In this document: positions 1 to 4,485 of the stretch, piece by piece
Numbering within the stretch: the stretch's first letter is position 1
How the letters are laid out: every line of letters begins with the position of its first letter
Made by a program: the position numbers and the translations under genes
DNA from: a virus
Lineage: Duplodnaviria > Heunggongvirae > Uroviricota > Caudoviricetes
Virus record (IMG/VR): IMGVR_UViG_2563366972_000007
Strand: one strand, 5' to 3'
Length of the DNA stretch: 4,485 nt
Notes under the pieces: generated by a model
What the model was told of the DNA's origin: nothing
Database searches by the model: none
Seen by the model: only the letters and a program-made list of their open reading frames with translations

Positions 1-432
1 GTGGGATCATTAACGGATGTCGCCTCCCGCGTCATGCTGTCGTTTGGTGAGTTTGAATTCAGTATTGATACTGCTGCTTATAACGCCATGAAGCGCACGA
101 TGGAATGGCGATGGGATGAACAACAGCTTATCGGAAAAAACGACCTGCTGCAGTATACCGGCAAGGGGGCCAGAACAATAACCCTTGAAGGTATGGCGCA
201 CGCGGGATTTCGTGACGGTGTGGGAATGGATGCCCTTGATACACTGGTTCAGATGGTGGATGACAATCCGGCCCCGCATCTTCTGGTCTCGAGCACAGGT
301 GATGTGATGGGGTATTTCGTGGCAACCGCTTATTCAGATAACACCACGTCCTTTCTTCCCGGCGGTGCGCCGAAGAACAAAACGTTCACACTGGAGCTGA
401 AATACTATGGCGAAAAACTGGCGGACTACTGA
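1..432 (+). CDS. gpU: P2 gpU-like tail protein; 5' end uncertain because the ORF opens with GTG at the window edge and an in-frame ATG at 34 fits the family N-terminus better
   Basis: Seen: ORF in frame +1 ending with TGA at 430..432. From memory: the translation (MLSFGEFEF..WRWDEQQLIGKNDLLQYTGKGARTITLEGM..GYFVATAYSDNTTSFLPGGAPKNKTFTLEL) aligns along its length with P2 gpU (MLALGMFVF..YRWPSNSRIGKRDAFQFLGVGEENITLAGV..GMYVISRVSETGSIFFADGTPRKIDFTLSL). Not verified by search. Confidence 0.8.
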   Translation: MGSLTDVASRVMLSFGEFEFSIDTAAYNAMKRTMEWRWDEQQLIGKNDLLQYTGKGARTITLEGMAHAGFRDGVGMDALDTLVQMVDDNPAPHLLVSSTGDVMGYFVATAYSDNTTSFLPGGAPKNKTFTLELKYYGEKLADY

Positions 433-625
433 CGGCGATATGCTGGATGACATCTGCCAGAGACACTATGGCAGCGCCGGACTTAACCAGTCACTGGCGG
501 CGGTACTGGAGGCCAATCCCGGACTGGCTGACCTTGGTCCGGTCTATCCGGCAGGTGTGGAAATCGTGTTGCCGGACTGGGTGTATGAACCGGAGGAAAA
601 GGAGGCGTTTCAGTTATGGGACTGA
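407..625 (+). CDS. gpX: P2 gpX-like tail protein X (small LysM-like tail protein)
   Basis: Seen: 72-codon ORF with ATG at 407 overlapping the gpU 3' end by 26 nt; GGAG at 393..396 sits 10 nt upstream. From memory: LDDICQRHYG..AVLEANPGLADLGPVYPAGVEIVLPD matches P2 gpX (LDAICVRYYG..TVLAANPGLAELGAVLPHGTAVELPD). Confidence 0.85.
   Translation: MAKNWRTTDGDMLDDICQRHYGSAGLNQSLAAVLEANPGLADLGPVYPAGVEIVLPDWVYEPEEKEAFQLWD
599..605 (+). promoter_or_regulatory. Shine-Dalgarno sequence (AAGGAGG) for the gpD-like gene
   Basis: Seen: AAGGAGG about 10 nt upstream of ATG 616. Confidence 0.5.
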
Positions 626-1716
626 ATGAGTATCAGCCGGATTTCAGCCTGACAGCAGAGGGTGAGGATATCACGAAGGCCATAAAGCGGGGGCTGGCTG
701 AACTGCGTTATACCGATAATGGTGCGGCCACAAAGCGGGCCGATGAACTGATGATAACGCTGTTCAGTGAGAAGATGGCGTTGCCGCCGAAAGGCGCGGT
801 ATTGACGCTGGGGCTGGGATTTAACGGAAATCTGGTGAATAAAGGCAGTTTTACAGTCTGCCAGGTGGCAAGCGGTGGCCCTCCCCGCCGGATAACCATT
901 TATGCCACCGCAGCCCCCATGAATGCGTCAAAACATGGCGCAGACGTGACCGCACTGAAAACCCGCGCGTTCAGCGATATCACACTGGGCGACCTGGTGA
1001 AAACGATCGCCACTGAAAATAATCTGGTGGCGCGGGTCTCACCGGCGCTGGCAAAAATTCGTATCCCGTGGGTGATGCAGTCATCTGAATCGGATGCGTC
1101 CCTGCTGTCCCGGCTTGCAGGTATGTATGGTGCCACCAGTAAACCGACGAACGGCTACTGGTTATTTCTGGAGTATGGCGCATCACAGAGCGCAGGCGGC
1201 AGGGATGCGCCTGTAATGACCATCACACCGGATATGGTATCAGACTGGGATTACCGGGAGGGGGAGCGGCAGGGAGCATCCGGAGGCGGAAAAGGAACAA
1301 CAAAAAAAGGGAAAGTGGGTGTCCGGTATTTTGATACCCGTGACGGACGCACGCGTGAAGTTAAAGTGGATGTGGAGTCCACAGACAAGCGACATCCATT
1401 CACTCAGCCGGATCAGGATACAGCAAAACACTGCGCAGACTCTAAGGTTAAACGTGTGCAGAAAGCCGGACGCCAGATGACGATAACGTTGCCCTGCAGA
1501 CCAGCACTGCTGAAAGCTGGGGCGGAAATGCGTTTTATCACGCAGGGATTTGGGGTACGGGAAGATCATAACTGGCAGGCTGAGTCGGTGGAGTTTTCAC
1601 TGGCACCGGGGCAGGGATTTACGCTGAATCTGTCGCTGGCCACGGATATTTCCGCGAAAGGACAGGCATCAGGGAAGAAGAAAGCGGATAAAAAGGGCGT
1701 GAATTATTTTGGTTAA
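616..1716 (+). CDS. gpD: P2 gpD-like tail protein (late control gene D family; baseplate hub-type protein of contractile tails)
   Basis: Seen: 366-codon ORF with ATG at 616 overlapping the gpX stop by 10 nt, preceded by AAGGAGG at 599..605. Size and position (immediately after U and X) fit the gpD family. The family call rests on synteny and general resemblance, not an explicit alignment. Confidence 0.75.
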   Translation: MGLNEYQPDFSLTAEGEDITKAIKRGLAELRYTDNGAATKRADELMITLFSEKMALPPKGAVLTLGLGFNGNLVNKGSFTVCQVASGGPPRRITIYATAAPMNASKHGADVTALKTRAFSDITLGDLVKTIATENNLVARVSPALAKIRIPWVMQSSESDASLLSRLAGMYGATSKPTNGYWLFLEYGASQSAGGRDAPVMTITPDMVSDWDYREGERQGASGGGKGTTKKGKVGVRYFDTRDGRTREVKVDVESTDKRHPFTQPDQDTAKHCADSKVKRVQKAGRQMTITLPCRPALLKAGAEMRFITQGFGVREDHNWQAESVEFSLAPGQGFTLNLSLATDISAKGQASGKKKADKKGVNYFG

Positions 1717-1729
1717 TGTTTTCTGGATC

Positions 1730-1733
1730 AGGA
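1730..1733 (+). promoter_or_regulatory. Shine-Dalgarno sequence (AGGA) for the tail fibre gene
   Basis: Seen: AGGA 7 nt upstream of ATG 1741 in the 24-nt gap after the gpD stop. Confidence 0.5.
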
Positions 1734-1740
1734 AATAAAA

Positions 1741-3546
1741 ATGTCTGTATTAATTTCTGGTGTGCTGACTGATGGCGCAGGACTCCCCATGTCCGGATAC
1801 CATATTATTCTGAAAGCCCGGCAGAATACATCTGCAGTGGTCATGAGAACGGTGGCTACAGTGGTGACAGGGCCGACGGGAGAATATGCTTTTGAAGCAC
1901 AGACCGGAAGATATGATGTTTATCTTCGGTCGTGTATTGAAAGAGAATATTGTGTCGGTGATATTTCGGTTTACGACGACTCCAGGTCCGGCACGCTGAA
2001 CGACTTTCTGACTGCCCTTGATGAAGGCGATTTAAAGCCGGATGTAGTGAAACGCTTTGAGGAAATGGTGGCGCAGGCGCAGCAGAGCGCGAAAGCGGCA
2101 GCGGAAAGCGAACGACAGGCCTGGCAACATGTCGCTGATGCGCAACAAATTAAGAGCGACTGCGAGACGCTGGCGGATAACGTACAGCAGAACGCAGAAG
2201 CCGTTGCTGAAGATAAAAAGCACGTGGCACAGCTGTCTTCGCAGGTTGAGGATACCGCCGAAGAGGTCAGGCAGGATGCTGAAGCTGCCAGAAAGGCCGC
2301 ATCCGATGCGGAGCAGGCCAGGGATGAGATTGATACCGCATTATCAGCGACACTCAAAACGGCTAACCACCTGTCAGAAATTGCGGCAGAAGGCGAAGAG
2401 GCGCAACAGGAATCCCGCGATAATCTGGGACTGAAAAGCGCCGCTACAATGGAGCCACAGAGTGATATTTATGACCGGACAGAAGGCCGACTGGCGGTTC
2501 CCGGCATGTTCGGATTCGGGAAAATATTTTCCTATGACGACAGGACAGAGTTTGAAACAGAGGCTGATTTTCTACTGTGGGTAAAAAGGGCAAACCCCGG
2601 ACGCTATGCCGTTTATGCACGTACAAATGTGGTAATACAGGGCGTGCTGCTCAGTGGTACTGTTGACATTATCTGGCCAGAATATCAGCACAATCCCAGT
2701 CCGGTATATATACCTAAAATCATTATTTTCTATGGCATTAACGGCCATGTTTATTACAACCGTTACTGGACTGCCAGTGGTGGTTATCTGGTTGGCTGGG
2801 AGAACCTGAAGGTCAACGAGGCTTCACTCAGGGCACTGATTGAAACCCGCGCGCCACTAAACAGCCCGGCACTGACCGGAACGCCGACAGCGCCAACACC
2901 GCCAGATGATGCAGCAGGCACAGAAATAGCTAATGCGGCGTTTGTCCGCAAACTGCTCGCTGCACTGGTGGATTCATCTCCCGAAGCCCTTGACACGCTG
3001 AACGAACTGGCGGCGGCGCTGGGCAATGACCCGAACTTTGCGACAACCGTCACTAACGCGCTGGCGGGTAAACAACCACTCAGTGATGTGTTAACGGCAC
3101 TCAGCAACCTGACACAACGTGCTGACACGCTTCCGTACTTTAACACAGATGAATACGTCTCCCTTGCGCCCCTGTCAGAAAAGGGACGCTCACTGCTGGC
3201 GCAGGAAACGCCGGAAGCCATGCGAACAGTACTGGAGCTGAAAAGCGCCGCCACAATGGAGCCACAGAGTGATATTTATGACCGGACAGAAGGCCGACTG
3301 GCGATACCGGGGACACTTGGTTTTGGGGAAATTTTTCATATTAATGACAGGATTAGCTTTGACACCAGAGCCGAATTTGATACTTGGATAAGAGGCGCAA
3401 AACCGGGGCGTTATCTGGTTTATGCAAACCCCGGCATAGTGATACCAAAAGTGCTATTCAGTGGAATTCTTGAAATTATCTGGGCTTCAGCTTTAACTAC
3501 TACAACTAACGGCGTAAACAAGATTTATTTTTTTTTACAGTGTTAA
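1741..3546 (+). CDS. stf: Side tail fibre protein, lambda Stf-like N-terminal domain, Ala/Glu/Gln-rich coiled-coil shaft, conserved fibre motif, two receptor-binding-type modules; as encoded it stops prematurely at TAA 3544..3546 inside the second module
   Basis: Seen: 601-codon ORF, AGGA at 1730..1733 sits 7 nt before ATG 1741. From memory: the N-terminus (MSVLISGVLTDGAGLPMSGYHIILKARQNTSAVV..ISVYDDSRSGTLNDFLTAL) aligns with lambda Stf (MAVKISGVLKDGTGKPVQNCTIQLKARRNSTTVV..ITVYEDSQPGTLNDFLCAM). The central block APLNSPALTGTPTAP..EALDTLNELAAALGNDPNFATTVTNALAGKQP matches the conserved Stf/fibre motif APLDSPALTGTPTAP..DALNTLNELAAALGNDPDFATTMTNALAGKQP. Confidence 0.85.
   Translation: MSVLISGVLTDGAGLPMSGYHIILKARQNTSAVVMRTVATVVTGPTGEYAFEAQTGRYDVYLRSCIEREYCVGDISVYDDSRSGTLNDFLTALDEGDLKPDVVKRFEEMVAQAQQSAKAAAESERQAWQHVADAQQIKSDCETLADNVQQNAEAVAEDKKHVAQLSSQVEDTAEEVRQDAEAARKAASDAEQARDEIDTALSATLKTANHLSEIAAEGEEAQQESRDNLGLKSAATMEPQSDIYDRTEGRLAVPGMFGFGKIFSYDDRTEFETEADFLLWVKRANPGRYAVYARTNVVIQGVLLSGTVDIIWPEYQHNPSPVYIPKIIIFYGINGHVYYNRYWTASGGYLVGWENLKVNEASLRALIETRAPLNSPALTGTPTAPTPPDDAAGTEIANAAFVRKLLAALVDSSPEALDTLNELAAALGNDPNFATTVTNALAGKQPLSDVLTALSNLTQRADTLPYFNTDEYVSLAPLSEKGRSLLAQETPEAMRTVLELKSAATMEPQSDIYDRTEGRLAIPGTLGFGEIFHINDRISFDTRAEFDTWIRGAKPGRYLVYANPGIVIPKVLFSGILEIIWASALTTTTNGVNKIYFFLQC
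2431..2496 (+). repeat. Direct repeat copy 1 (66 nt) opening the first receptor-binding-type module; encodes LKSAATMEPQSDIYDRTEGRLA
   Basis: Seen: identical to 3238..3303 at 65 of 66 positions (t at 2445 versus c at 3252); sequence diverges sharply from position 67. Confidence 0.9.
3238..3303 (+). repeat. Direct repeat copy 2 (66 nt) opening the second receptor-binding-type module
   Basis: Seen: 65/66 identity to 2431..2496, same reading frame, 807 nt (269 codons) downstream. Confidence 0.9.
3528..3536 (+). other. T9 homopolymer at the frame-change point of the fibre gene (candidate slippage or phase-variation tract, or indel/sequencing error)
   Basis: Seen: nine consecutive T at 3528..3536. 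It lies inside the 29-nt interval (3518..3546) where frames +1 and +2 are both open. Reading the tract as T8 gives ..NKIYFFYSVNGAVYY.., which matches module 1 (KIIIFYGINGHVYY). Confidence 0.8.
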
Positions 3547-3631
3547 TGGTGCGGTTTATTACGCCCGTGGCACTTCTGGTGCCCCGGCATGGGAACTCTG
3601 GAGACGAACAGATAAGGAATTAATTGATTTT

Positions 3632-3922
3632 TTGTCCGGTACAGTTTATTCCGGCGGGCTGAATGCATCACCGGAGGCTGGCGGTATTGTTCAGGCAGCA
3701 TTTCGTTATCAGGATAAGCCCGGAGGATACACCCTGAGGCGAGGTGATGCTTTAAGTGGTTCACTTCTGAAGCCATATATAATTACAGTCGATGAAAGTG
3801 GCGAACAGACTCTTCATATTAAAGAGGAACATACGTTTCCCGGATATTACTGGAGTCTGACCTCCTATCCGTGGCTGAAAACGAGTGATTATATTCTGGG
3901 AATATTTATAAGGTATCGTTAA
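3632..3922 (+). CDS. Distal (C-terminal) part of the tail fibre, displaced into frame +2; not an independent gene
   Basis: Seen: frame +2 is open from 3518 to TAA 3920..3922 with no in-frame ATG (the ORF-track start at 3632 is TTG). Its translation from 3518 (FIFFYSVNGAVYYARGTSGAPAWELW..) is homologous to the continuation of the first fibre module in frame +1 (IIIFYGINGHVYYNRYWTASGGYLVGWENL..), so it is the natural continuation of the fibre past the T9 tract. Confidence 0.7.
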   Translation: MSGTVYSGGLNASPEAGGIVQAAFRYQDKPGGYTLRRGDALSGSLLKPYIITVDESGEQTLHIKEEHTFPGYYWSLTSYPWLKTSDYILGIFIRYR

Positions 3923-4485
3923 TGAACATTACAGATATAAAAAATCCTGTCAGCCTTGAACACGGGGCGATAAATTGCGAAATATTATTTGACGATATGG
4001 AGGAATATGTTCCCTATACCGCGACACCGACAGACAGCGATAAAACGGGGAAGCAGGTATGGCAGGAGCTACAAAGCGGTAAATGGGGTGAAATCGCCCC
4101 GTTCATCGTCACGCCGGAACTTATTTCGGCAGCGAAGAATGCCAAAAAGCGGGAAATTGAGGTGTGGCGTACAGAGCAGGAAGCGCAGCCGTTCACGTTC
4201 GAATGGAACGGTCATACCTGGAATGGTGGTCCTGACTCGATGGCGCGGCTTTATCCGGCAGTAATAGCATCAAAGTCTGACACAGCGCGAAAATCCATGA
4301 TATGGGGTAATGCGGAAAACCAGCAGGTGAAACTGTCTATGCAGAAACTGGATGAACTGCTTACTGCAATGGTTCAGGCACAGGTCGATCGCAATGATGA
4401 GATTTATCAGCGTCAGCGCGAGATGAAAGAAGCGTTAAATTCACTGGAGGATTTGAAGTCGATTAGGGATTTCAGGCTGGAGTAA
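3922..4485 (+). CDS. Putative tail fibre assembly/chaperone protein; family not recognised
   Basis: Seen: 187-codon ORF whose ATG (3922..3924) overlaps the fibre-frame stop TAA (3920..3922) in a TAATG junction, with AAGG at 3910..3913. The position directly after a fibre gene is where Tfa-type chaperones sit. I do not see the canonical Tfa C-terminal motif, so the function is inferred from context only. Confidence 0.45.
   Translation: MNITDIKNPVSLEHGAINCEILFDDMEEYVPYTATPTDSDKTGKQVWQELQSGKWGEIAPFIVTPELISAAKNAKKREIEVWRTEQEAQPFTFEWNGHTWNGGPDSMARLYPAVIASKSDTARKSMIWGNAENQQVKLSMQKLDELLTAMVQAQVDRNDEIYQRQREMKEALNSLEDLKSIRDFRLE

Follow-up and report, generated by a model that had tools for sequence, protein, structure and literature searches.

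P2-type U-X-D tail genes followed by a terminal, probably accessory fibre cassette in a temperate Escherichia coli phage lineage

The window analyzed here is a 4,485-nucleotide stretch of viral DNA (IMG/VR record IMGVR_UViG_2563366972_000007) identical in sequence to bases 1-4485 of scaffold KB733035.1 in assembly GCA_000352305.1 (L034 1-4485). In our reading, which we consider likely, the late operon of a temperate E. coli phage ends in this window, where the contractile-tail genes U, X and D lead into a second and probably accessory fibre system. This cassette consists of a fibre gene with an N-terminal PF08400 domain and a DUF4376 gene, and all these genes lie on the plus strand. Profile searches, PHROGs and R2-pyocin structures agree on the first three genes, which a preliminary description of the window had already read as contractile-tail gpU, gpX and gpD. 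The gpU homologue (positions 1-432), the baseplate centrepiece called “ripcord” in the R2 pyocin, matched PF06995 (2.2e-27, 95.5 bits against a cutoff of 27.5), PHROG 76 (9e-43) and the R2-pyocin chain “Ripcord PA0626” (PDB 6u5b_h, 1.2e-14). Its 5′ end is cut by the end of the scaffold, the first 19 codons of a 162-amino-acid (aa) protein being absent; the full length is seen in relatives, and the GTG at position 1, previously taken for the start codon, is an artefact of the scaffold end. The gpX homologue (407-625), a LysM-fold baseplate protein whose 72 aa agree with a family size of about 70 aa, matched PF05489 (2.9e-19, 68.9 bits against a cutoff of 22) and PHROG 46 (8.9e-23); its overlap with gpU is 26 nt long and that with gpD 10 nt. 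The gpD homologue (616-1716), the baseplate hub carrying the gpV spike, scored 26.6 bits against PF05954 in hmmscan, under the 30.1-bit gathering cutoff; a precomputed collection table lists PF05954 for a protein identical to it. Homology to D and hub proteins extended over the full length of gpD, with matches to PHROG 52 (2.9e-98), to an R2-pyocin baseplate chain (PDB 6u5h_C, 2.5e-17, residues 7-331) and, by tblastn, to phage D genes such as phiCTX D (1e-99 to 2e-24), and the gene stands after U and X as a hub gene should. In the R2 pyocin, PA0626 is the baseplate centrepiece, PA0627 a LysM wedge protein orthologous to T4 gp53, and PA0628 the hub forming the central spike complex (PMC10811340). 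U, X and D therefore build the inner baseplate, supplying its centrepiece, its LysM protein and its spike-carrying hub, respectively.

The gap between gpD and the fibre gene was counted as 24 nt (1717-1740), as previously given, and inspection of its sequence shows a GGA, a weak ribosome-binding site, some 9 nt ahead of the fibre ATG. The 601-aa fibre open reading frame (ORF) spans 1741-3546. Its start (1741-2040) encodes a StfN-type anchoring domain of a contractile-tail subtype, probably the collar of an accessory fibre (PF08400: 4.1e-53, residues 1-133, 179.4 bits against a cutoff of 26.6); the assignment also draws on the structure matches, the model and the identity matrix described below. 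The remainder (2041-3546), the fibre shaft, comprises a coiled coil, two copies of a duplicated module and a motif of the P1 S/P2 H type, and ends early at 3546. The last gene (3922-4485) encodes a DUF4376 protein of 187 aa (PF14301: 1.9e-14; PHROG 1141: 8e-83), for which a PDB sequence search gave no match; beyond it come attR and uspF, with no further prophage gene between. An NCBIfam scan of the five window proteins returned nothing but a subthreshold coiled-coil match to ZorA, and megablast of the window against a phage collection matched the fibre part only, leaving U-X-D unmatched.

The element to which these genes belong was read in relatives. Loci L004, L005, L007 and L008 encode an identical gpD and share 98.8 to 99.7% identity with the whole window, and L009 shares 97.9%. 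In all five, upstream reading covered the full 10 kb fetched, starting from head-proximal connector genes, and the gene order was connector genes-V-W-J-I-H-G-sheath-tube-E-tape measure-U-X-D-PF08400 fibre-DUF4376-host genes. H is a PF12571 fibre and G a Caudo_TAP protein, both placed before the sheath gene in these relatives (L004-L009). The fibre position in the window had been called unusual, but the P2-type H/G pair occupies its usual place upstream of the sheath, and the gene after D is an additional fibre. E. coli A36 (NZ_CP028739.1), 94% identical to the window over 1-2235 (U-X-D and the fibre N-terminus), carries a complete prophage of roughly 43 kb (at about 1,504,900-1,547,900) with early and lysis genes (integrase, repressors, replication genes, Q antiterminator, tRNAs, holins and endolysin), head genes (lambda-type terminase, W, portal, S49 protease, decoration protein, major capsid protein and FI, together with a head-closure protein of PHROG 82 and a Neck1 protein of PHROG 27), and a P2-like tail (baseplate, sheath and tube) that ends at attR beside ssrA. 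The lineage is a complete temperate prophage with lambdoid early genes, a lambda-like head and a P2-like contractile tail. Downstream of the window itself lie uspF, ompN and a pyruvate:ferredoxin oxidoreductase gene, the Rac attachment region of E. coli. The same assembly, GCA_000352305.1, holds a second U-X-D-fibre copy (L006) on another scaffold, next to the hya operon, which is 98.8% identical over window positions 1-2496 and differs in mid-fibre; the strain carries two related prophages, and it is probably because of L006 that the scaffold breaks off where it does.

These flanks bear on the suggestion, made in the preliminary description, that the window might be part of a tailocin-like cluster, that is, a tail-only bacteriocin of the R type with its fibre placed after gpD. 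The U-X-D order is indeed that of the consecutive R2-pyocin genes PA0626, PA0627 and PA0628, the relatives hold a contractile-tail gene set (baseplate, fibre, sheath, tube, tape measure, U, X and D) such as a tailocin would need, and the scaffold starts inside gpU, so the window's own upstream DNA is out of sight. A tailocin should, however, come without capsid, packaging, replication or integration genes, and the A36 module sits in a prophage with integrase, replication, lysis, terminase, portal, capsid and decoration genes. The loci with an identical gpD keep the same genes from the head-proximal connector genes onward, a normal H/G fibre pair is encoded upstream, and the scaffold break is explained by L006. 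We therefore regard a tailocin as highly improbable, the flanking genes of A36 and L004-L009 being those of a complete prophage.

To place the arrangement in a wider context, 18 related loci from other Enterobacterales, outside E. coli, were collected with a five-sequence gpD alignment (a contig scan with the single gpD protein as query returned no relative, its peptide patterns being too specific). U, X and D were contiguous in all 18 loci and in phages yong2 and Chris1. Two block orders were seen: V-sheath...U-X-D-W-J-I-H-G (order A) in 16 of the 18 loci and in both phages, and V-W-J-I-H-G-sheath...U-X-D (order B, as in P2) in two Serratia loci and in the E. coli lineage. The same fibre and DUF4376 cassette follows G/TAP in L035, a P2-like prophage with order A, and follows the primary fibre and TAP in Mu-like phiP27 and in Rac-SA53-type tails (sheath confirmed). 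In Mu-like L036, L037 and L040 the PF08400 fibre comes after fibre and TAP and is the last gene seen, and in the two lambda-type tails sampled it comes after J; in all of these the contigs end inside the fibre gene. A DUF4376 partner was also found in phiP27 (L57), Rac-SA53 (tail4), L015 and L035, and pPE4 gp70 is probably its equivalent, by position and length. Judged from these gene orders, the constant of the cassette is the last slot of the late operon, next to attR, with D adjoining it only through block order. Fibre and DUF4376 genes thus form a portable two-gene unit, always final in the late operon, that follows D by way of the P2 block order and G in sister lineages with the other block order.

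Several loci show what else can stand at or near this position. In Serratia rubidaea L033 (order B), the slot after D (11121-13163) is taken by a protein of 680 aa that carries a sialate O-acetylesterase (SASA) domain; it was considered as a divergent StfN fibre and rejected for its different N-terminus and its esterase domain. The prophage of the other Serratia order-B relative ends at D. The L033 locus suggests that the slot after D serves receptor-binding proteins in general as a landing site. In STEC719 (L002 1-17600) a Mu-like prophage (gpT head protein, sheath, Mu-type baseplate and com/mom) lies directly upstream of the gpE-like gene, occupying the expected place of the P2-like baseplate, sheath and tube genes, and looks like a Mu-type insertion into the tail operon of another prophage; it brings a divergent PF08400 protein of its own, after which comes an SGNH hydrolase. 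L015 (NZ_CP026085.1, labelled E. coli DH5alpha; 1-12728) combines Rac-SA53-type baseplate, fibre and TAP genes with a 1,046-aa PF08400 fibre and a DUF4376 gene next to uspF. In K-12 the Rac remnant ends in stfR-tfaR-pinR, a difference that may cast doubt on the strain label of L015 or on its history.

Among 5,426 complete E. coli genomes, the gpD lineage was found in 74 (coverage of at least 80%), and a probe for the D-fibre junction was likewise found in 74 at the same coverage, the two sets being equal in number though not directly confirmed to be the same genomes. The equal counts indicate that the junction is probably a fixed feature of the lineage and the norm of its arrangement. Its nucleotide identity was 87 to 93% in the listed genomes. 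The preliminary description had allowed that its reading would fall if the fibre domain proved common on contractile tails with this gene order, and across these 74 genomes that is largely the case. We regard the window as an ordinary representative of this recurrent E. coli prophage lineage, whose terminal fibre is probably accessory. The literature found on PF08400, on prophage tail fibre N-termini and on P2-like tails with lambda-like heads does not describe the D-fibre arrangement. Colinearity of the window with A36 and STEC719 extends to about position 2230, some 165 codons into the fibre gene, and is lost past that point; the anchoring end of the fibre is thus inherited with the tail, and the distal end is shuffled.

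The boundary between D and the fibre is also one of base composition, with G+C content falling from about 0.53 to 0.57 in U-X-D to 0.45 at the start of the fibre gene (a drop around 1650-1950) and to about 0.40 to 0.46 near the 3′ end of the fibre. This would be consistent with different origins of tail block and fibre cassette. Homology to phiP27-type fibres starts about at the fibre ATG. In that general sense the window had rightly been described as a mosaic tail module. A signal search of the window placed neither a promoter-like nor a terminator-like site within the D-fibre gap or close to it, which is compatible with co-transcription of the two genes but no proof of it. A promoter-like site at 1937-1965 was dismissed, the window holding fewer such sites than shuffled controls.

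The anchoring domain itself matched two solved structures, Ur-lambda StfN (PDB 9e7m_Ta, 9E7M/9MGH; E 3e-16, 44% identity) and the N-terminus of XM1 gp40 (PDB 7kjk_A3; E 1.1e-5, residues 1-198, 23% identity). An AlphaFold2 model of the domain (predicted local distance difference test score, 81.8) has six strands, a short helix and then a long helix, the fold of PF08400. When this model was searched with Foldseek, the only significant PDB matches were StfN (template modelling [TM] score, 0.85) and XM1 gp40 (0.69), both normalized to target length; the gp40 match (E 6.9e-7, TM 0.65/0.69) extends over the domain and its helix. A Foldseek match to the A-1(L) neck fibre was discarded (E 7.7e-3, root mean square deviation 11.8).

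Although the fold is shared with lambda, the subtype is not. In an identity matrix of the first 100 residues of the window fibre domain, with a subtype split drawn from about 15 sampled contexts, the domain was 96% identical to that of A36, 74 to 77% to those of phiP27, Rac-SA53, pPE4 and the L015 prophage, and 57 to 73% to those of five more contractile-tail contexts and one insertion sequence-ridden remnant after a TAP gene; lambda and two other lambda-type contexts reached 44 to 54%, and the Mu-like prophage of STEC719 was a divergent outlier (38%). All ten classifiable contexts examined with at least 56% identity to the window domain are contractile (P2-like, Mu-like or Rac-SA53-like). In the isolated-phage collection, roughly 300 other PF08400 matches fell below 60% identity and were, among the matches listed, mostly lambdoid or siphoviral; records above 80% were limited to phiP27 (two records), Rac-SA53 and pPE4, with phiP27 and pPE4 collar domains 99% identical to each other. 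The earlier view that this N-terminal domain is typical of non-contractile lambdoid phages thus holds for the Pfam family among isolated phages and fails for the subtype in the window.

We consider it unlikely that the PF08400 fibre is a genuine side tail fibre of the lambda type that a lambdoid siphovirus gave up in recent times and that docks near the tail tip or baseplate. It does share its Pfam family with the lambda fibre and finds its best solved match in Ur-lambda StfN, with the identity and TM score given above, and the lambda gene is likewise encoded after tail-tip genes. Nonetheless, the window domain is nearer to contractile-tail domains (56 to 96%) than to lambda-type ones (44 to 54%), every sampled context at or above 56% that could be classified is contractile, the gene follows the gpD of a sheath-and-tube tail rather than the gpJ of a non-contractile one, and the downstream partner is a DUF4376 protein with no Caudo_TAP match rather than Tfa. 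Because the D-fibre junction is conserved across the whole lineage, it must be old, which argues against a recent capture. Furthermore, the lambda docking site (the tube/Dit junction) is covered by sheath and baseplate on contractile tails.

Two known virions offer precedents for how such a domain is mounted. In Ur-lambda, twelve StfN domains (four trimers) form a collar round the gpV tube/gpM junction, making contact mainly by one loop, and the side fibres speed adsorption and are dispensable (PMC12617516). On the contractile-tailed XM1, gp40 is mounted through this domain, as six trimers, on the neck proteins gp4 and gp5, in addition to spikes on the baseplate (PMC10457771). By analogy, the post-D gene probably encodes an accessory fibre anchored by a collar at the neck. 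This location is favored because the lambda site would be buried in a sheathed tail and because the same domain serves tails that have no other protein in common: blastp, tblastx and PHROGs revealed no shared docking partner outside the fibre genes among phiP27, Rac-SA53 and the P2-like lineage, which share only the C-terminal part of fibre 1, TAP, fibre 2 and DUF4376, and whose neck proteins belong to different PHROG families. The C-terminal roughly 230 residues of the primary fibre are 74 to 81% identical across L001 (phiP27), L012 (Rac-SA53) and L004 (P2-like), and in phiP27 and Rac-SA53 the primary-fibre C-terminus, TAP, second fibre and DUF4376 gene make up one exchanged block. More tentatively, and with rather less confidence than an even chance would give, PF08400 may comprise two clades, one siphoviral and one of contractile tails, the latter being a nearly tail-independent neck collar adaptor for accessory fibres in temperate coliphages. 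Such an adaptor would attach by closing a ring round the narrow six-fold stack, instead of by binding a specific protein partner. If so, there are prophage virions with neck fibres that have so far gone undescribed, and the domain would be a ready-made portable handle for fitting receptor-binding fibres onto contractile phages.

The fibre gene of the window differs from its close relatives in one respect. A homopolymer at 3528-3536 has nine T residues in the window and eight in five close relatives aligned with it, and the extra T shortens the fibre from 726 to 601 aa. With one T deleted, the segments 1741-3546 and 3632-3922 read through as a single ORF of 726 aa, whose product agrees with the intact protein of L007 at 723 of 727 positions; the second segment, a 96-aa ORF matching the C-terminal end of PHROG 2636, is the out-of-frame rest of the fibre C-terminus, presumed to be the receptor-binding tip. 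The ninth T is either a fresh inactivation or a homopolymer error of the draft assembly. If it is real, the fibre in this genome is probably inactive, and the frameshift must be very recent, given the near-perfect match of the repaired fibre to L007. Laboratory lambda likewise carries a frameshifted stf (PMC12617516). Phase variation at the T-run was considered and found no support, all five close relatives having T8. That the fibre gene is a dead pseudogene here, and the cassette without current function, is possible, but we do not favor it: the extra T removes the distal tip, the truncated 601-aa product is on record in assembly GCA_000352305.1 alone, and the related STEC719 locus is annotated with an incomplete fibre, yet the five close relatives have an intact ORF, the repaired fibre is almost that of L007, and an assembly error is at least as likely as a real mutation.

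Within the fibre gene, a direct duplication (2425-2676 and 3232-3483; spacing 807 nt, 74 to 82% identity) encodes in both copies a “...KSAATMEPQSDIYDRTEGRL...” module. The stretch between these repeats is a different one in L006, a sign that the repeats may act as recombination points for swapping of the distal part. A conserved motif at 2957-3080 (SPEALDTLNELAAALGNDPNFATTV) shares 80 to 89% nucleotide identity with gene S of P1/P7 and gene H of P2; its P1/P7 counterpart is the constant Sc segment next to the cix site. At the protein level, it matched gp4, the “tail collar fibre” of mycobacteriophage Bxb1 (PDB 9d93_La, 2.6e-11).

Taken together, we propose a virion with two fibre systems. The primary fibre is the gpH-like protein, with gpG as its chaperone. 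This gene pair lies ahead of the sheath gene, and the primary fibre presumably sits on the baseplate. The second fibre is probably a trimer whose Ig-like N-terminal domains of roughly 90 residues would ring the virion as a collar, placed at the neck by analogy with XM1 gp40, and would continue into the coiled-coil shaft and an exchangeable distal receptor-binding part. Such an accessory fibre would speed or broaden adsorption and would not be needed to trigger contraction; we infer that the DUF4376 protein is its chaperone or a tip protein. A number of points weigh against this proposal. The fibre is frameshifted in this genome, and the window's own prophage is visible only from gpU on, where the scaffold ends. 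Co-transcription of D and the fibre is read from their spacing and from the lack of consensus signals, and the attachment site of the fibre in this lineage from its genes. Among the solved homologues, the nearest is that of lambda (44% identity), whose docking site is the tail tip and not the neck; XM1 gp40 shares just 23%. It is also worth noting that in phiP27 and Rac-SA53 types the cassette moves with the C-terminus of the baseplate fibre and its chaperone, which could point to a site at the baseplate or associated with the fibre.

For annotation, a PF08400 “lambda Stf-like” match after gpD is no sign of a tailocin or an odd chimera, but marks the usual terminal fibre cassette, probably accessory, of an E. 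coli prophage lineage that recurs. That the cassette holds its place at the end of the operon while the preceding tail blocks are permuted or replaced makes it a clear case of modular phage evolution. Of wider interest is where and by what means the same anchoring domain docks on three contractile tails that are otherwise unrelated; knowledge of this would help host-range engineering.

Compared with known systems, the lineage resembles P2 in the block order of its baseplate, fibre, sheath, tube, tape-measure, U and D genes (V-W-J-I-H-G; FI-FII-E-T-U-D) and in having D as the last structural gene before the attachment site. It differs in that X lies between U and D, whereas in P2 it lies between L and Y; in that the fibre and DUF4376 cassette replaces ogr, which in P2 follows D ahead of attP; and in its lambda-like head and lambdoid early genes. 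A check on NC_001895.1 showed that the preliminary description had P2 right on both counts, X lying elsewhere and D being followed by ogr. The gpD protein is about 30% identical to phiCTX D, and no phage D gene exceeded 51%. The closest isolated phages by gpD are Hafnia phage yong2 (51%) and Citrobacter phage Chris1 (48%), which share the lambda-like head, contiguous U-X-D and P2-like baseplate, but have the order V-sheath-tube-E-T-U-X-D-W-J-I-H-G and no PF08400 fibre, as do 16 of the 18 related loci. In the R2 pyocin, PA0626 and PA0628 are homologous to U and D, and PA0627 to X (PMC10811340), in the same consecutive order, the one that the preliminary description had given for R-type pyocins. 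The pyocin has no head, whereas the lineage described here is a complete prophage with an extra terminal fibre. We take PA0620 to be the only fibre of the R2 pyocin, encoded upstream.

Among fibres, Ur-lambda Stf shares a homologous N-terminal collar domain followed by a linker and coiled coil, but sits on a non-contractile tail, with its collar at the gpV/gpM junction and Tfa as partner; the window fibre belongs to a contractile tail and has another domain subtype and a DUF4376 partner. Closer are phiP27 L56/L57, Rac-SA53 tail3/tail4 and pPE4 gp69/gp70, with the same N-domain subtype (76 to 77% identity), DUF4376 partners 71 to 72% identical to that of the window in phiP27 and Rac-SA53, and a cassette at the late-operon end of a contractile-tailed temperate phage after a spacer of 23 to 24 nt before the ATG. 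In these phages, unlike the window, the cassette follows the primary fibre and TAP chaperone, and the tails are Mu-like or Rac-SA53-like, not P2-like. Vibrio myophage XM1 differs in that the distal part of gp40 is a tailspike and its neck location is proven, where the one proposed here is argued by analogy. Nonetheless, gp40 has the same Ig-like N-terminal domain leading into a long trimeric coiled coil, on a contractile-tailed virion that carries two sets of receptor-binding proteins (PMC10457771).

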